A stretch of 10,543 nucleotides of DNA, taken from the UHGV virus genome UHGV-0097031; one strand, written 5' to 3'. The notes below the pieces were generated by a model. The model was given only the letters and a program-made list of their open reading frames with translations, had not been told where the DNA came from and searched no databases. The DNA is from a virus. Below, piece after piece: positions 164 to 9,042 of the stretch. How positions within the stretch are numbered: position 1 is the first letter of the stretch; every line of letters begins with the position of its first letter. The translations under genes and the position numbers were made by a program.

Positions 164-739
164 ATGTTAATGGCGAACGATAACGCATATGCAGAAGAAG
201 ATCTCATTTTGAGTGACTTCATAGGGAAGCGGGAACGCTGGACCCAAAAGCGAGAGGAACTTTACGCCTCATTAGTTCGCAAAGGCGTCAATATCGAAAC
301 CGCACAGAGCGGCGATATGACAGTGGTAAGCGTTGGATTGCACGGTGTAAGCGTGTCAGCAATCAATCATGAGCCATACGTTGCGTTATCCGAGTCAATG
401 GTAAGGTTAGTTAAGTTCCTGAAGTACACAGAAGCGAATAATGTAATCATTGGCAAAAAGAATATCCCTTTTTCCTCGGCTTTTTACTGGATGATGAAAG
501 GGCTTGATGCCCGGCGGACATCATGGCCTAAAGGGAGCTATATATCGATGTTCCGTGGCAGCATTGGCAGCAAAGAAAAGCTCTTCGAATTCTTGCCGGA
601 AGAGGCATTCGATATTGTGGAAGGGTGCGATGTGATGGTTATGCCTCGGCTGGTAATGATGAATGGAGACTTACAGGCACAGACAGACTGGTTCGCCACT
701 GGCGTGGATATTATCGCGACTGACTGGGAGGCATTCTGA
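164..739 (+). CDS. Hypothetical protein with C-terminal DUF2829-like region
   Basis: 191-aa ORF; AGGAG (154-158) 5 nt upstream of ATG 164. C-terminal part (FSSAFYWMMKGLDARRTSWPKG ... TDWFATGVDIIATDWEAF) shares the F-S-x-A-x-x-W...G...RR..W..G start and W...D-[LI]-[LI]-A-x-DW end pattern with the clearer DUF2829 domain of the ORF at 8365-9042. By-eye comparison only. Confidence 0.55.
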   Translation: MLMANDNAYAEEDLILSDFIGKRERWTQKREELYASLVRKGVNIETAQSGDMTVVSVGLHGVSVSAINHEPYVALSESMVRLVKFLKYTEANNVIIGKKNIPFSSAFYWMMKGLDARRTSWPKGSYISMFRGSIGSKEKLFEFLPEEAFDIVEGCDVMVMPRLVMMNGDLQAQTDWFATGVDIIATDWEAF

Positions 740-1131: not shown

Positions 1132-1150
1132 TGTTAGATGAATGGAATTA

Positions 1151-1164
1151 ATTTTCTAATATAA
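1151..1164 (+). promoter_or_regulatory. Candidate repressor operator (ATTTTCTAATATAA) upstream of the packaging operon; a weaker inverted half-site lies at 1132-1142
   Basis: Member of a recurring TTTCTAA[C/T]A motif family also seen at 5563-5580, 5644-5658 (minus) and 6972-6987, all in intergenic positions before operons. From memory, the CTAATA core resembles the P1 C1 operator consensus ATTGCTCTAATAAATTT. Confidence 0.3.
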
Positions 1165-1239
1165 CCAACTTTTTGCCAGTCTATACAGAAATAACATTCT
1201 CATTATCATCCCCTCGGTCATTTCCTGCCTGGGGGATTA

Positions 1240-1632: not shown

Positions 1633-2993
1633 GTCTGGTTAATTGGGAGGAGCACCGCGCCCGCTTTATAGCGTTGCGTGAAGAAAAAGGGATCACTGTA
1701 AAGGAATACTGTGAGGAGCATGGCCTTAGCTTCAATACAGCCAGAAAGCATCTCAATATGAAAAAAAATGAGGTGCGGTCGCAGGTAAAGACAACAAAAA
1801 AAAGCACCAAATCACCTGAAAAAAAACGGGCGGGAAGAGCAACAAAAAAGCTGGAAGAGGGTGCAGAAAAAACAAAATTTACAGAAATTGACAATTCGCA
1901 GGGTGCAGGTTCTTTCCGAAGTATGCCAAGAAAGAAAACTTCGGATCATGAAAGTAATGCCAATAATAACAATGAGATAAAAGAATCTGTCAGGAGATCA
2001 TTGCGCGAAAAAATGGCGAAAATGATCCCCGAAGAAGATAAAAGCGCCCCAAAAATTGAGGGATCTTCAGCAATGATCCCTGGCGGTGCTGTGCAGCGTG
2101 CCACATTGCCCACTACGAATGTGGCTCGCGATATGATGAAGAACGGCGCAGAAGAACACCTGCGGTTAGCAATTCAAATGGCGCAAGAGCGCGCACTTCA
2201 GTATCAAAGCATTGTTGATCAGGAGGCCGAACGTCTACAGGCGGAAATAGACGCCTTGGGCGATAAAGAGCCAGAAGGAATGCACCCTGGGCAGCGCCTT
2301 CTCGGTCTAATCAGTGACGCGGCCTACTACATGAATGATTTTATCAGTAGGTTGGCAGCTATATATCAGTCCGAACAAAAGCTGCGACAGGGGGATGAAA
2401 AGCTTCGTCAGAGCGCTCGCCAGCAAGCATTCAAAGAGGCTGAGGCCAGAGAAAAACTCGAATTAGCACGCCTACAGGCCGAACAGCGTGGCAAAGAGAT
2501 TGAATATCGCATTGGCGCTGACGCACGCGCAGCCAGAGTTATCGCCGCCGCTATACGTATGCGTGAGCGCGAGGAACTGGATGATATCGGTGTTGCTGAA
2601 TACATCGAGCGCCAGGGGGTCAGCGTCCCGGCTATCCTCGCGGCGCGCGCGGCGAAAGCTATCACTCTTCTCGAACCACCTGTTTCTGACGTCAATGATG
2701 TTGATGATGAACAGCTGGACAAAGAGGCAAGGGAGTTTGCAACGCTTCAGGCTAACCATCCGCAATGGCTGGCAGAGCGCCGGGCGGATGTGGCAACCAT
2801 TGTTGAAGAATTGGGGTGCGGAGATTACGACCGCAATGGCGAGCGTAAAGCTGGAGAATTCGAGGCCAACGACGAAGAGCTGGATATTGACCCTTCGGCA
2901 ACGGCTGAAATTTACGGTGATTATGATGCATCTGATGCAGGGTATGACGCCGGAGATGATGATATCGCGATAGAACCGCCGGAGGATGATTAA
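1629..2993 (+). CDS. pacA: Terminase small subunit, PacA-like
   Basis: 454-aa ORF directly before and overlapping the large terminase gene (TAATG at 2991-2995). N-terminus (WEEHRARFIALREEKGITVKEYCEEHGLSFNTARKHL) looks like the HTH of small terminase subunits; Lys-rich linker, coiled-coil-like middle and strongly acidic C-terminal tail. Confidence 0.65.
   Translation: MSLVNWEEHRARFIALREEKGITVKEYCEEHGLSFNTARKHLNMKKNEVRSQVKTTKKSTKSPEKKRAGRATKKLEEGAEKTKFTEIDNSQGAGSFRSMPRKKTSDHESNANNNNEIKESVRRSLREKMAKMIPEEDKSAPKIEGSSAMIPGGAVQRATLPTTNVARDMMKNGAEEHLRLAIQMAQERALQYQSIVDQEAERLQAEIDALGDKEPEGMHPGQRLLGLISDAAYYMNDFISRLAAIYQSEQKLRQGDEKLRQSARQQAFKEAEAREKLELARLQAEQRGKEIEYRIGADARAARVIAAAIRMREREELDDIGVAEYIERQGVSVPAILAARAAKAITLLEPPVSDVNDVDDEQLDKEAREFATLQANHPQWLAERRADVATIVEELGCGDYDRNGERKAGEFEANDEELDIDPSATAEIYGDYDASDAGYDAGDDDIAIEPPEDD
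1943..2079. other. Candidate pac (packaging initiation) site: cluster of GATC-containing hexamers inside pacA
   Basis: Five GATC hexamers in 137 bp: GGATCA (1943-1948) and AGATCA (1995-2000) on the left, TGATCC (2023-2028), GGATCT (2061-2066) and TGATCC (2074-2079) on the right, arranged roughly as mirror images; AATGATCCC occurs twice (2021-2029, 2072-2080). P1 pac lies inside pacA and is built from Dam-methylatable TGATCA/G hexamers flanking the cut site (from memory). Confidence 0.3.
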
Positions 2994-4480
2994 TGGCTGG
3001 AGGGCGCAAGATTAAATGCGTCACCAGCGATCCACGCTGGCGCGATATGGTAATCAAATACCGCTACAACTTTACCCAGGCTGTTGTCGATATTTTTGGG
3101 ATGTTCCCCTCCCACCAGCAGCAGCAGATCATTCAGTCCGTGCAGGAAACGGGGAGTAGGACGACCGTCACGTCCGGACACGGAACGGGGAAGTCGTCCC
3201 TTACCGCGATGTTGCTGTTGATTTTCATGATCCTGTTCCCCGATGCCCGTGTCATCATTGTTGCTAACAAGATAGGCCAGGTAAAAACAGGCGTATTCAA
3301 ATACGTTAAACAGTATTGGGCGAATGTAGTTAAGCGTCATGGGTGGTTGCAGACCTATTTTGTCCTCTCTGACACCATGTTTTATGAGCGCTCCCGTAAG
3401 GGGATTTGGGAAGTTCTCTGCAAAGGTTATCGACTCGGCAACGAAGAAGCGCTGGCGGGTGAACACGCGGCACATTTGCTTCTAATTCTGGATGAAGCAT
3501 CTGGTATATCTGATAAGGCGATCGGCGTAATGACCGGTGCTCTTACTGAAGAAGATAACCGGATGTTGATGCTATCCCAGCCAACAAGGCCAAGTGGTTA
3601 TTTCTACGATTCGCACCATTCTCAAGCAAAAACCCCAGACAACCCGAAAGGGATCTGGACAGCAATTGTTCTTAACTCGGAAGAATCACCGTTCGTCACA
3701 CCACAATTCATCAAGCAGAAGCTTCTGGAATATGGCGGGCGCGATTCTATTGAGTACATGGTCAAGGTGCTTGGTCAGTTCCCACGAGAAATTAACGGCT
3801 ATTTGCTTGGTCGTGATGAATGCGATCGCGCTGCTCGCCGCAAGGTGTTGTTGGAGAAAAACTGGGGATGGGTGGCAACGGCTGACGTTGGTAATGGGCG
3901 AGATAAGTCGGTCCTCAACATCTGCAAGGTATCTGGTCACAGGGATAAGCGGCGCGTTGTTAACTTTAAGGTAATGGAGATGCCTGGCACTATGGACCCA
4001 TTGGCCTTTGCTGACTTCATATATAACGAATGTACGCCGGAAAAATACCCGAATATAACAATCGCGGTTGATGCTGATGGTTTTGGTTCTGATACGTGTG
4101 CGCAGTTGGTGCGTCGTGGTGCGAACCCGGTACGTATTCGGTGGGGAAAACCCATGTTTGCGAACAAAGACAGGGAGCGATTTGTTAATCAGCGTGCCTA
4201 CGCAAATATTATGGCGCGAGATGCCATAAAGTCAGGGCGTATGCGGATAGACAGTGACCCTAAAACGGCAGAGCAAGCGTCAAAAATCCCCTTTTTACTG
4301 AATGAAGAAGGGAAAATGGCGATGATGCGCAAAGAGCACATGCGGCAAAAGCTAAACATCAAATCGCCTGACCGATGGGATACCTACTGCTTCACTATGC
4401 TGGTGGACTATGTGCCTGCTAATGAAGATATTGGTGCCGAAATGGCAACTTTCCGAGATCAGGTTCTGGTGGATATATAA
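2993..4480 (+). CDS. pacB: Terminase large subunit, PacB-like (ATPase plus nuclease)
   Basis: 495-aa ORF; GGAGGA (2981-2986) 6 nt before ATG. P-loop TSGHGTGKSS, Walker B LLLILDEASGI, Asp-rich C-terminal half (e.g. VDADGFGSD) consistent with the terminase nuclease domain; size and position match P1 PacB (from memory). Confidence 0.85.
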   Translation: MAGGRKIKCVTSDPRWRDMVIKYRYNFTQAVVDIFGMFPSHQQQQIIQSVQETGSRTTVTSGHGTGKSSLTAMLLLIFMILFPDARVIIVANKIGQVKTGVFKYVKQYWANVVKRHGWLQTYFVLSDTMFYERSRKGIWEVLCKGYRLGNEEALAGEHAAHLLLILDEASGISDKAIGVMTGALTEEDNRMLMLSQPTRPSGYFYDSHHSQAKTPDNPKGIWTAIVLNSEESPFVTPQFIKQKLLEYGGRDSIEYMVKVLGQFPREINGYLLGRDECDRAARRKVLLEKNWGWVATADVGNGRDKSVLNICKVSGHRDKRRVVNFKVMEMPGTMDPLAFADFIYNECTPEKYPNITIAVDADGFGSDTCAQLVRRGANPVRIRWGKPMFANKDRERFVNQRAYANIMARDAIKSGRMRIDSDPKTAEQASKIPFLLNEEGKMAMMRKEHMRQKLNIKSPDRWDTYCFTMLVDYVPANEDIGAEMATFRDQVLVDI

Positions 4481-4507: not shown

Positions 4508-5545
4508 TTACCAGAGCTTCGCGGCGTACTGCGTTTGGGGGAATGTGTATCCGTAACGTTCTTCGATTGCTTTGCCGTATTTTTTACGAGCTTCATTCAG
4601 TTTTATGCCGGTCAGGTCGTCTCCAGAGGCCATCATTACGTCTAACAATTCCAGATCCATTTTATCCAGCCTTGCCATTGCTTCACGTGATGTACGTATC
4701 TTACGCTCAATGATATGGCGAATAGCCGGATCGGCATCCTCCAGCATCTTAGCGGATTTCTGCTTAAGGCTTTCATTGCGAATATCGATGTTCCTTAAGA
4801 TGTACGACTTCGCAACGTAGCTTGGCTGGTGTTTTTCCAGGTCACGAACACGATATAAGTTAAAATCGCCGAGAAGGCTGCAAGGTACCGATTCGACGCC
4901 AGAATAAATTGTAATGCTCCGGCGCTCACCAACATTATTGACAACGGGGATCGTTGTCTTCGGTAGTCTTGCGAAAACCAATGCGCCATGTGCGCCAACT
5001 CTAAAGCGAGAAAGGGCATTGCTGCCTTCGATGTTTGTTGTCAGCACAACATCTGTATATGCCTCTTTACGCGCCCGGTAGATCTCGCCTTCAGGCTCAG
5101 CTTCAAAGAAGCGCTGTTCTTCTTCAAGAGCACCTACGATTTGAGAAAAAACCCTATTTTTCAGGCTTTTCTTTATGATTTTGTCGTATTTTTTGAGCAA
5201 TTGTTCACGTGTAAATGTACGTGTTGTTGTAGCGCTTTGCACAACAACATGCGTGCTTTGATTGGTGTCCTCAATGATGAATGGGATCGGAGAATATACA
5301 GACTCAACAATGTTCGACGCTTTGCCGTCGGCATCGCGGCACATGTCAACGAAGGCTTTCCATTCAGCAAGACATTTTTCAGCTTCTTCTAATATGTTTT
5401 GGTCATGCGTTAATGCAACATGGCGGAATTCCTCGCCAGCATAACTGGTATCATGGAAAACAGAGTTTGCGACCACCAGCTCTTTCCACCGTTCAGCGGT
5501 TTGCAGGAACCGTTTGTACTCTTTCTCGATCGACTTCTTACTCAT
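4508..5545 (-). CDS. Hypothetical 345-aa protein in the immunity-region position (between pacB and lox-cre); candidate immunity repressor or accessory gene
   Basis: Longest ORF in this interval; AGGA 5 nt upstream of its ATG (minus strand); own AT-rich upstream region with paired operator-like inverted repeats; convergent with pacB and divergent from cre, as in the P1 immC region. I could not recognise any conserved domain by eye. Confidence 0.7.
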   Translation of the reverse strand: MSKKSIEKEYKRFLQTAERWKELVVANSVFHDTSYAGEEFRHVALTHDQNILEEAEKCLAEWKAFVDMCRDADGKASNIVESVYSPIPFIIEDTNQSTHVVVQSATTTRTFTREQLLKKYDKIIKKSLKNRVFSQIVGALEEEQRFFEAEPEGEIYRARKEAYTDVVLTTNIEGSNALSRFRVGAHGALVFARLPKTTIPVVNNVGERRSITIYSGVESVPCSLLGDFNLYRVRDLEKHQPSYVAKSYILRNIDIRNESLKQKSAKMLEDADPAIRHIIERKIRTSREAMARLDKMDLELLDVMMASGDDLTGIKLNEARKKYGKAIEERYGYTFPQTQYAAKLW

Positions 5546-5562
5546 TATTCCTACTCGATTTA

Positions 5563-5662
5563 GTTTTCTAACATAAAATTACTATGACAAATTTATGTCG
5601 AATAACAGAGTGAGTAAAGGATCGAACTGTGATTTTTTGTCATCAATTTTAGAAAACCAACT
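5563..5662. repeat. Pair of ~28-30 bp imperfect inverted repeats (candidate operators) in the promoter region of the 4508-5545 gene
   Basis: Left arm (plus, 5563-5591) GTTTTCTAACATAAAATTACTATGACAAA; right arm read on the minus strand (5636-5658) GGTTTTCTAAAATTGATGACAAA. Blocks GTTTTCTAA, AAAATT and ATGACAAA are identical, with two small indels; the arms flank a ~44-bp centre. Confidence 0.45.
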
Positions 5663-5754
5663 GTATAAACCACGCTTCGCAAATTAAAGACCATGAAGGC
5701 AACGTGTTACTGGTCAGAATCAATCTGTGATGGATTAAAAAAAATCGCCATTTT

Positions 5755-5788
5755 ATAACTTTAAATAATTGGCATTATTTAAAGTTAG
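5755..5788. other. lox-like recombination site (13-bp inverted arms, 8-bp spacer)
   Basis: ATAACTTTAAATA - ATTGGCAT - TATTTAAAGTTAG; the arms are inverted repeats of each other at 12 of 13 positions, and the outer ATAACTT is identical to the outer 7 bp of the loxP arms (loxP: ATAACTTCGTATA). Lies 152 bp upstream of the Cre-family gene. Confidence 0.65.
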
Positions 5789-5796
5789 GCTATAAT
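5769..5796 (+). promoter_or_regulatory. Candidate sigma70 promoter reading toward cre, overlapping the lox spacer and right arm
   Basis: -35 TTGGCA (5769-5774), 16-bp spacer, -10 TATAAT (5791-5796); a TGATCA Dam-type hexamer at 5807-5812 lies just downstream. Confidence 0.4.
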
Positions 5797-5939: not shown

Positions 5940-6968
5940 ATGAGTGAATTAATTATCTCTGGCAGCTCCGGTGGTTTTCTGCGCAACATTGGCAAAGAGT
6001 ACCAGGAGGCCGCAGAAAACTTTATGCGGTTCATGAATGACCAGGGGGCTTACGCGCCGAATACTTTGCGCGATCTCCGGTTAGTGTTTCACTCCTGGGC
6101 GAGATGGTGTCACGCTCGCCAGCTCGCCTGGTTCCCGATCTCACCAGAGATGGCCCGCGAGTATTTTCTTCAGCTGCATGATGCTGATCTGGCTTCGACC
6201 ACCATTGATAAGCACTACGCCATGCTTAACATGCTGCTTTCGCATTGTGGCCTTCCGCCACTTTCGGATGATAAAAGTGTTTCTCTGGCTATGCGGCGCA
6301 TCCGGCGTGAAGCGGCAACTGAAAAAGGCGAACGAACAGGCCAGGCTATACCGCTGCGGTGGGACGATCTGAAACTGCTCGACGTCCTGTTGTCCAGGTC
6401 AGAACGGCTGGTGGACCTGCGCAACCGGGCTTTTCTCTTTGTTGCATACAATACGCTGATGCGTATGTCGGAAATCTCGCGTATTCGTGTAGGAGATCTG
6501 GATCAAACAGGTGACACTGTCACGCTACATATTTCACACACGAAGACAATAACGACCGCCGCCGGGCTTGATAAGGTGCTTTCCCGTCGCACTACCGCTG
6601 TGCTGAATGACTGGCTGGATGTTTCCGGGCTTCGCGAACATCCTGACGCAGTGCTGTTCCCGCCGATACACCGTAGCAATAAGGCCAGGATCACGACAAC
6701 GCCCCTTACTGCACCTGCAATGGAGAAAATATTCAGCGACGCCTGGGTGTTGCTGAATAAAAGAGATGCTACGCCAAACAAAGGAAGATACCGGACGTGG
6801 ACCGGGCATAGTGCACGCGTCGGGGCCGCTATTGATATGGCTGAAAAGCAGGTGTCTATGGTGGAGATCATGCAGGAAGGAACCTGGAAGAAACCGGAAA
6901 CACTTATGCGGTATCTTCGCCGTGGCGGCGTGTCTGTGGGGGCTAATAGCCGCCTGATGGATTCGTAA
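5940..6968 (+). CDS. cre: Cre-family tyrosine site-specific recombinase
   Basis: 342-aa ORF that aligns by eye along its whole length with P1 Cre (343 aa): SWARWC / SWAAWC, WFP, LNML, SVSLAMRRIRRE / AVSLVMRRIRKE, AYNTLMRMSEISRIRV / AYNTLLRIAEIARIRV, HTKT / RTKT, WTGHSARVGAAIDMA / WSGHSARVGAARDMA, EIMQEGTW / EIMQAGGW, MRYLR / MNYIR. All catalytic positions (Arg, Lys, His-x-x-Arg, Trp, Tyr) are conserved. Confidence 0.9.
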   Translation: MSELIISGSSGGFLRNIGKEYQEAAENFMRFMNDQGAYAPNTLRDLRLVFHSWARWCHARQLAWFPISPEMAREYFLQLHDADLASTTIDKHYAMLNMLLSHCGLPPLSDDKSVSLAMRRIRREAATEKGERTGQAIPLRWDDLKLLDVLLSRSERLVDLRNRAFLFVAYNTLMRMSEISRIRVGDLDQTGDTVTLHISHTKTITTAAGLDKVLSRRTTAVLNDWLDVSGLREHPDAVLFPPIHRSNKARITTTPLTAPAMEKIFSDAWVLLNKRDATPNKGRYRTWTGHSARVGAAIDMAEKQVSMVEIMQEGTWKKPETLMRYLRRGGVSVGANSRLMDS

Positions 6969-6971
6969 ATT

Positions 6972-6987
6972 AAATTTCTAACACATC
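6972..6987 (+). promoter_or_regulatory. Candidate operator (AAATTTCTAACACATC) between cre and the downstream accessory operon
   Basis: Same TTTCTAACA core as the motifs at 1151-1164 and 5563-5580; followed by a short inverted TTAGA (6991-6995); sits 4 nt after the cre stop and ~55 nt before the TTG start at 7042. Confidence 0.3.
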
Positions 6988-7041
6988 TTTTTAGATTAAC
7001 GCCTTTGCTGTAAAGTACCCTCGCCTATTTAGGAGGGTGCT

Positions 7042-7386
7042 TTGCAGAGTCAAATCACGGAATCAAGACGCTTCAAGGTGGATGGTTACACCGTAACCTT
7101 CGCCGCTGGTGTTAAGAACAGTCATGCTGTCGTTGTGTTCGGCATCATGACCGGGCTTGAGGCCGTCCCTGTGTTTACCCTCGAAAAAAACTGGCGAAAT
7201 CTGGAGGAAGCAGAAAGCTACGTCCGGAAAGTAACCATCATTGCCGCCGAAAAACTCCTGGCCCACTATCAGGAAAATTATCGCACTATGGTCGAGAAGA
7301 TTAATCTCGCTTTCACTCGCCCCACTACCGGCTTTATTGCACCGGATACTAATGCCGGTCGATATCCTGCAAGGGGGCGTCGGTGA
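7042..7386 (+). CDS. Hypothetical protein (TTG start)
   Basis: 114-aa ORF starting at TTG 7042, preceded by a strong AGGAGG (7031-7036) at 5-nt spacing; the first in-frame ATG would remove ~35 residues. No recognisable motifs. Confidence 0.5.
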   Translation: MQSQITESRRFKVDGYTVTFAAGVKNSHAVVVFGIMTGLEAVPVFTLEKNWRNLEEAESYVRKVTIIAAEKLLAHYQENYRTMVEKINLAFTRPTTGFIAPDTNAGRYPARGRR

Positions 7387-8364: not shown

Positions 8365-9042
8365 ATGAATAACAAGGCAACGAAAGAGCTTTTTAAGCTC
8401 CTTCCCAAATACAAAGCTCACAAAAACGTTAGTGCATCGAAAATCAAAAATGTTGTTATTTTCGGAGTAACTGATACCCCACTTTGGGGCAGCATCGAAC
8501 TCGTTGAACCTAAAGGGGCAACAGTTTGTGTTGACGCAATGTTTTTACAAAAACACCGACCAAAAACTGGCGGGTATCTGATCGTTTATGAAAACGGTTA
8601 TCTGTTCTATGCCCCGGAGAAACCATTTGAGGAACGCTATGGCCTGGTTAACGACGCCTCCAAAAATGGAACCACGGTCATCATTACGGATGACAACGGC
8701 GCGATGATTAATCTTACCGGGAGCGTAACTATTTCTGCTGGTGGCATCACCACCCAGCAAGAAGAAATCGACCTTGAAGCAGCCGACTTTTCTGACGCGC
8801 TGATGTGGCTGAAGGATGGCAAGAAAGTTGCTCGACGCGGGTGGAACGGCGAAAACCAATTCTGCTGGCTGGTTCCTGAAGGACAGTACCCGGCACGAAT
8901 GGAAGCCATTAAGGGATATTTTCCCGGCGACCTCGTTCCGTATGGTGCTTATTTCGCCTTAAAAAATGCACAAGGTGTAGTTGTTCCGTGGGTGCCTTCA
9001 GTTGGCGACCTGCTGGCCTGTGACTGGTTTGTTGTGGAGTGA
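8365..9042 (+). CDS. Two-part protein: unknown N-terminal region (~140 aa) fused to a C-terminal DUF2829 (Tad2-family) domain
   Basis: 225-aa ORF. C-terminal ~85 aa (DFSDALMWLKDGKKVARRGWNGENQFCWLVPEG...PYGAYFALKNAQGVVVPWVPSVGDLLACDWFVVE) matches the DUF2829 pattern I recall (F-x-x-A-L-x-x-L-K-x-G-K-K-V-x-R-x-G-W-N-G ... P-W-x-x-S-x-x-D-L-L-A-x-D-W). N-terminal part unrecognised. Confidence 0.7.
   Translation: MNNKATKELFKLLPKYKAHKNVSASKIKNVVIFGVTDTPLWGSIELVEPKGATVCVDAMFLQKHRPKTGGYLIVYENGYLFYAPEKPFEERYGLVNDASKNGTTVIITDDNGAMINLTGSVTISAGGITTQQEEIDLEAADFSDALMWLKDGKKVARRGWNGENQFCWLVPEGQYPARMEAIKGYFPGDLVPYGAYFALKNAQGVVVPWVPSVGDLLACDWFVVE

Follow-up and report, generated by a model that had tools for sequence, protein, structure and literature searches.

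The window analysed here is a stretch of 10,543 nucleotides of the virus genome UHGV-0097031. Its DNA is approximately 97% identical to Escherichia phage D6 and its gene order agrees with the D6 records, placing it among the D6-like phage-plasmids of the P1 family. D6 itself is a P1-related phage-plasmid and the origin of the Dre/rox recombination system and tool. The genes and the recombination site of the locus are as follows:

164-739, plus strand: gene for a 191-aa protein with a Tad2-like (anti-Thoeris) domain (E=1e-9)
1240-1632: lpa
1629-2993: pacA
2993-4480: pacB
4508-5545, minus strand: c1, for a 345-aa D6-type C1 repressor (by homology), with the Shine-Dalgarno sequence AGGA at 5549-5552 (minus strand)
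5756-5787: rox, the target site of Dre
5940-6968: dre

The Tad2-like gene also adjoins lpa in distant relatives, so that this neighbourhood is conserved. The spacer between c1 and rox comprises 210 bp (5546-5755) and carries the inverted repeat studied here. The original prediction had located the repeat between the start of the 345-aa gene and a lox site; the interval holds, but the recombination site is rox and not loxP. No coi-like ORF was found in the 210-bp spacer, where the sole ORFs, of 20-33 aa, coincide in part with the promoter and lack conservation.

The 345-aa protein and D6 C1 have the same sequence (100% identity). Pairwise BLASTP against P1 C1 gives 21% identity across 240 aa (E=2e-8). 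P1 was not reached by tblastn at 1e-5, implying that the homology to P1 C1 is remote, though real. The C1 homologues bear the precomputed Pfam family PF27008 (Phage_P7_repressor_C1); the window C1 itself yielded no match when compared with a local Pfam copy. Judged from these comparisons, the protein is a D6-type C1 repressor and a homologue of the P1/P7 C1 proteins.

The inverted repeat upstream of c1 is composed of the following elements:

5563-5571 (plus strand) and 5649-5657 (minus strand): outer block GTTTTCTAA
5584-5591 (plus strand) and 5636-5643 (minus strand): inner block ATGACAAA, which reads TTTGTCAT on the plus strand at 5636-5643
5575-5580: AAAATT of the left arm; the right-arm copy overlaps the outer block
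5592-5635: repeat centre, 44 bp

The three shared blocks and the 44-bp centre described by the original prediction are thus confirmed in the sequence. The blocks are not collinear, the gap between outer and inner block being 12 nt in the left arm and 5 nt in the right. The repeat was compared with 500 dinucleotide shuffles of 5546-5755. Its longest perfect arm is 9 nt, and an arm of at least 9 nt arises in 16% of the shuffles (P=0.16); three or more perfect arms of at least 8 nt arise in 2.4%. The repeat as such is barely beyond chance and not significant alone, and its meaning comes from the comparative data. A direct repeat is also visible in the spacer, with AGGATCGAACTGTGAT at 5618-5633 and AGAATCAATCTGTGAT at 5716-5731 (81%, 98 bp apart); it is not conserved in the lower-identity tiers and is probably due to chance.

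For the comparative analysis, representatives of each identity tier, from 99% down to 72%, were drawn from the 196 PLSDB plasmids matching the c1 upstream region and aligned. Relatives with C1 proteins 44-69% identical and 32 viral contigs were added, giving 46 loci with 34 distinct upstream sequences and a C1 identity of 44-100%. One plasmid, L006 (pSa1423-90k, NZ_MK356557.1), shows many single-base homopolymer indels against all relatives and has c1 and dre annotated as fragments; therefore, sequencing errors are likely in this record.

In an alignment of 10 lineages, exactly four islands are invariant, namely the distal TTTTCTAA, CTTTACT, TAAATT and the proximal TTTATGTTAGAAAA. Across the broader set, the proximal TTAGAAAA is in place in all 34 distinct sequences, as is TTTAC(T/G) followed after 17 nt by a -10-like hexamer. 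Both convergent cores are found in 33 of 34, at a centre-to-centre distance of 84-86 bp in 32 and of 98 bp in one (L016). The remaining sequence, L017, has no exact distal core; a copy with one mismatch lies about 90 bp away. The 84-86 bp spacing is hence retained in 32/34 while the intervening sequence diverges, and the distal core is invariant while its flanks diverge. As to the annotation of L017, its c1 homologue (572-1714) is listed as 380 aa; the C1 alignment and the location of promoter and operator point to a GTG about 105 nt further downstream as the real start.

The inner blocks behave differently from the outer ones. Of the 34 distinct sequences, 10 carry both ATGACAAA and TTTGTCAT, and these 10 all belong to the D6/window tier. 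The left inner block gives way to GTGACAAA, GAACTCAAA, GATAGTAAA and others in the 82% and 72% tiers, with no covariation or compensatory change, and the right-arm AAAATT is not conserved either. The inner blocks are lineage-specific and probably not recognition elements, as judged from this alignment. The earlier view of the arms as long composite recognition elements is not borne out, since the outer 8-mer alone is conserved in both arms.

In P1, C1 recognises an asymmetric 17-bp operator, ATTGCTCTAATAAATTT, at 22 dispersed sites, and its own promoters are among those it represses (PMC8546580). Because the P1 operators are dispersed, we searched for recurrence of the repeat blocks elsewhere. 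In the window, GTTTTCTAA recurs with one mismatch immediately ahead of lpa. The complete D6 genome contains 18 copies of TTTTCTAA, 11 of them intergenic, where the intergenic share of the genome is about 10.5%. In an unbiased ranking of all 8-mers of the 91-kb D6 genome by intergenic enrichment, TTCTAACA is first (11/12 intergenic, P ~1e-10) and TTTCTAAC second (11/13). The underlying operator is asymmetric and spans approximately 17-20 bp, reading TTA(A/G)TTTTCTAACA(C/T)A, with TTTTCTAA as its core.

A position weight matrix (PWM) was built from the D6 sites with the two c1 arms excluded (consensus TTAGTTTTCTAACACATTTT), and its significance was judged from the rank distribution in the real genome (182,280 D6 positions). 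On the PWM, 16 D6 sites reach 17.7 bits or more and are set off from all others by a clear gap in score; 15 of these sites are intergenic. The intergenic sites precede lpa, the icd/repL region, ref, the hrdC operon, pdcB, several early operons, the gene after dre, and c1. The same operator word is found at the lpa and post-recombinase promoters of relatives with 44-51% C1 identity. In P1, C1 controls Lpa, RepL, ref, dmt and kilA (PMC8546580, PMC4713147), and Olpa is annotated in the curated P1 record.

The D6 majority consensus equals the P1 consensus at 11 of 17 positions (in the P1 register), and a TCTAA core is common to both. The curated P1 operators score between -19.5 and 7.6 bits on the D6 PWM, in contrast to at least 17.7 bits for the D6 sites. 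Taken together, the consensus match and the low P1 scores imply a homologous operator family with different specificity. A full-text literature search with the motif returned unrelated papers only; an earlier listing in the D6 papers (PMC534624, PMC5800970) or in PMC523184 is possible.

Several individual sites deserve mention in their own right. At 6970-6989 (plus strand), TTAAATTTCTAACACATCTT (26.1 bits) is a full-strength C1-type operator 2 nt past the dre stop and upstream of the ORF at 7042-7386; therefore, the operon after dre (orf117-like, orf116-like, dUTPase) is probably C1-repressed. This post-dre operator is also present in the distant relative L015, at 8414-8433. TTAATTTTCTAATATAACCA (18.3 bits) at 1148-1167 (plus strand) is a C1-type operator upstream of lpa (start 1240) and parallels P1 Olpa. 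In D6 (L005), hrdC and pdcB are preceded by 'bivalent' operators (64110-64151 and 80703-80744), in each of which two divergent 20-mers are offset by 22 bp; the two operators of P1 Oc1ab, in contrast, are overlapping and convergent.

Applied to the c1 upstream region, the operator word resolves the repeat into two unequal sites:

5560-5579, plus strand: proximal c1 operator (left arm), TTAGTTTTCTAACATAAAAT, full D6-type consensus, antisense to c1
5641-5660, minus strand: distal half-operator (right arm), TTGGTTTTCTAAAATTGATG, with the core TTTTCTAA at 5649-5656

The proximal operator lies 15-34 nt upstream of the c1 ATG. With the PWM trained without the arms, it scores 27.5 bits and ranks 4 of 182,280 D6 positions. 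The distal site scores 11.8 bits and ranks 17 in D6, the first below the gap under the 16 strong sites; it retains the 5' half TTGGTTTTCTAA and is devoid of the CACA half. It converges on the proximal site, 85 bp away from centre to centre. In several lineages the distal site contributes about 0 bits outside the 8-mer, which makes C1 binding to it uncertain. Fuller distal sites occur in distant relatives (19.1 bits in L016, 10.9 in L015 and 12.3 in L020). In L016 the strengths are reversed, with 19.1 bits at the distal and 2.5 bits at the proximal site, suggesting that they are partners that can stand in for each other. A leader mini-ORF, ATG TTA GAA AAC TAA at 5562-5576 (minus strand), falls entirely within the proximal operator; no Shine-Dalgarno sequence is recognisable for it, and it probably arises as a side effect of the operator sequence (ACAT in reverse).

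The motif, its distribution in the genome, its conservation and the homology of the repressor make it very probable, on sequence grounds, that the arms are operators for the 345-aa protein, as had been proposed. The accompanying idea of a long palindromic site for a dimer, or of a second protein, is unneeded, because the left arm is one standard asymmetric operator of a kind that occurs mostly singly in D6.

The candidate c1 promoter lies between the two sites:

5613-5618, minus strand: candidate -35, TTTACT, 4/6 to TTGACA, with CTTTACT invariant in the aligned lineages
5590-5595, minus strand: candidate -10, TAAATT, 17 nt from the -35 and 4/6 as a hexamer

The promoter drawn earlier as TTACTC, 16 nt and TAAATT is this same element, and it is conserved and promoter-like. 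TAAATT occupies the -10 position in most lineages; the 90% tier has TAGATT instead, L016 TATAGA and L017 TAAAAT. From these hexamers, c1 transcription is predicted to start near 5583. The proximal operator would then occupy approximately +5 to +24, so that the left arm lies within the transcript leader, in agreement with the earlier proposal, and the distal 20-mer would occupy approximately -58 to -77.

A promoter consensus scan did not flag the c1 promoter (8/12 matches). The scanner's hits were a plus-strand promoter within rox and, at 5822-5795, a weak one on the minus strand. At 5769-5796 (plus strand) there is a near-consensus sigma-70 promoter, TTGGCA-16-TATAAT (11/12), with its -35 within rox and directed to dre; no C1-type operator was found near it. 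By sequence inspection, no acceptable -35/-10 pair was found for a plus-strand promoter under right-arm control, and no LexA box was recognisable in the spacer. TATAAA at 5664-5669 was discarded as a -10 because it reads TAGAAA in D6 and is not conserved. The Dam site GATC at 5621-5624, beside the -35, was likewise set aside, being not conserved in the 82% tier and in most of the 72% tier.

A copy of the box AAATCACA is present within the repeat centre, at 5628-5635 (minus strand), but it has the wrong spacing for a late promoter and is missing from the 88%, 82% and 72% tiers. Elsewhere in D6, many late operons, including prt, ddrB, R, pmgB, gene 23, gene 7, mat and orf16, are preceded by AAATCACA with a -10-like hexamer 7 nt behind it (in L004/L005, e.g. 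at 25234, 27740, 38128, 45504, 54137, 67406 and 72113). It is the third most intergenic-enriched 8-mer of D6, and is probably the Lpa-dependent late-promoter box.

We consider it likely that the arms are two C1 sites, convergent and on either side of the c1 promoter, that mediate negative autoregulation. The motif, its genome-wide distribution, its conservation, the geometry of the sites and the homology of the repressor are established here, and from them we infer that C1 binds, where transcription starts, which way c1 is regulated and that a loop may form. The autoregulatory role put forward in the original prediction is thus the best reading, the sites flanking a conserved promoter-like element, and it is one that we infer from sequence. 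C1 bound to the strong proximal site (approximately +5 to +24) would occlude RNA polymerase or block its escape, and the result would be negative autoregulation of c1. The weak distal half-site would most likely be an auxiliary operator, occupied in cooperation with the proximal site. Such an arrangement would be in keeping with P1 c1, for which control by several operators has been reported (PMC8546580). The fixed distance of 85 bp corresponds to approximately 8 helical turns, and the promoter could possibly be enclosed in a small repression loop.

Two features to be looked for in such a loop are present, namely a strong and a weak operator (27.5 and 11.8 bits) bracketing the promoter, and a constrained spacing (84-86 bp in 32/34). 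Looping or cooperation between the sites, as was suggested for the repeat at the outset, is therefore a reasonable reading of the fixed 85-bp spacing. It is equally conceivable that the spacing is set by the promoter and not by the other operator. P1 C1 has been described as recognising an asymmetric operator, and looping requires a multivalent repressor. C1-mediated looping in P1 c1 autoregulation was reportedly described by Heinzel et al. in 1994 (J Biol Chem).

A bolder version of the autoregulation model would have the 85-bp micro-loop obligate and evolutionarily fixed throughout the D6-type C1 repressors, a group widespread among phage-plasmids of Escherichia and Salmonella, joining a full asymmetric operator and an 8-bp half-site, perhaps via the family-specific C-terminal helical extension of the repressor, as a compact design that replaces the multi-operator coi/imc circuit of P1. 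We regard this as possible but doubtful. If it were true, one part of the repressor would read the TTTTCTAA half and another the CACA half.

The ambiguity of the spacing leads to a different account of the distal site. The proximal site alone could be the C1 operator, the distal TTTTCTAA being kept for a role that depends on its distance from the promoter: as an upstream activating or UP-like element, as a site from which C1 or a host factor touches the alpha subunit of RNA polymerase (positive control), or as a roadblock to rox-side transcription. The distal site scores between about 0 and 12 bits in most lineages, with 8 bp alone conserved, and the coordinates put the centre of its core at approximately -69.5, near the class I activator position. 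Its spacing from the -35 varies no more than that from the proximal site, and the stretch separating it from the -35 contains a conserved A-tract. However, the distal 8-mer is the invariant core of the dispersed operator in exact inverted orientation, and in L016 a full distal operator (19.1 bits) stands opposite a weak proximal one (2.5 bits). Moreover, an activator role for the weaker distal site is implausible if the stronger site represses first. We therefore hold a separate role of the distal site to be unlikely.

The placement of the promoter admits another arrangement. If the real promoter were ATGACA (5643-5638, the minus-strand reading of the right inner block)-19-TTTACT, with TTTACT as the -10, the distal site would abut the -35 and the proximal one would be a roadblock at approximately +27 to +46, again giving negative autoregulation but with no need for looping. 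ATGACA matches TTGACA at 5/6 positions, a perfect TTGACA stands at the same place in L011, L013 and L018, and P1 Pc1 has an operator over its -35. The 19-nt spacer is unfavourable, however, an ATGACA-type -35 is missing from L007, L009, L010 and L020, and the invariant TAAATT island would be left unexplained. These points render this promoter improbable, in favour of the TTTACT-17-TAAATT element between the two C1 sites.

The inner blocks could in principle be the target of a second factor, with C1 on the outer block, and both the window and D6 do carry ATGACAAA/TTTGTCAT as an 8-nt inverted pair without mismatch. Against this, the pair is confined to the 10 sequences of the D6/window tier, ATGACAAA is found nowhere else in the window, and an 8-nt inverted repeat is not unusual in this AT-rich spacer, so that a two-protein site appears very improbable. 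Least credible is the pairing of the arms as a DNA cruciform or an RNA hairpin serving as a functional unit such as a terminator, attenuator or processing site: a three-block stem can be drawn from the window sequence (minimum free energy -18.1 kcal/mol), but its folding does not surpass that of shuffled sequences (z = -0.37; 69/200 fold equally well), the outer helix is uninformative on pairing because 8 of its 9 pairs never vary, the middle and inner helices (the latter being helix 3) show 48% and 65% pairing and no consistent compensation, no Rfam match was found, and the distal arm lies upstream of the predicted start.

Autoregulation of c1 through two convergent C1 sites would follow the standard concept of repressor autoregulation. 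D6-like phage-plasmids are common in E. coli and Salmonella. The operator word, the regulon of about 16 sites and the layout of c1 control together constitute a usable map of the genes that would be silenced by the prophage repressor. They also offer a compact repressor/operator pair, with a specificity distinct from that of P1, for synthetic control, as well as a simple testable model for holding lysogeny without the coi/imc module of P1.

Among known systems, the immC region of P1 is the closest counterpart. The repressors are homologous, and the synteny of pacA-pacB, c1, recombination site and recombinase is common to both. Both have an asymmetric operator of about 17 bp dispersed before lytic and early genes. 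Both place operators at the repressor's own promoter, in P1 the curated Oc1a-e (= Op99a-e) at Pc1 and P1coi, and in the D6 type, by position, the sites at 5560-5579 and 5641-5660. The differences lie in architecture and specificity. P1 has the bivalent, overlapping Oc1ab over the Pc1 -35, and Oc1c, Oc1d and Oc1e distributed across about 550 bp together with coi, imcB and imcA. In the D6 type, in contrast, a 210-bp spacer devoid of coi and imcA/imcB separates c1 from the recombination site; a single strong operator follows the predicted start, and a half-site lies 85 bp further upstream. D6-type C1 is about 60 aa longer than P1 C1, with a C-terminal helical region that is unaligned to it, and its operators do not share the ATTGCTCTAATAAATTT specificity, the P1 operators reaching at most 7.6 bits on the D6 PWM. 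On these sequence comparisons, repressor homology and the style of the operators place the D6 type in the C1/operator family, and it shares neither the P1 specificity nor the coi/imc module.

Compared with the palindromic operators of the lambda type, which are bound by dimeric HTH repressors, the sites are alike in lying beside the repressor's own promoter. They differ in being asymmetric and mostly single per locus, and the two c1 sites, 61 bp apart, do not form one dyad. The geometry is also reminiscent, by analogy only, of lac O1/O3 and gal OE/OI, in which a strong operator just past the start and a weak one approximately 85-115 bp upstream enclose the promoter at a conserved spacing. The lac and gal repressors are proven to be multivalent and bind palindromic sites. 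The D6-type sites are, in contrast, asymmetric and inverted, and looping by a multivalent D6-type C1 is a conjecture drawn from this analogy.
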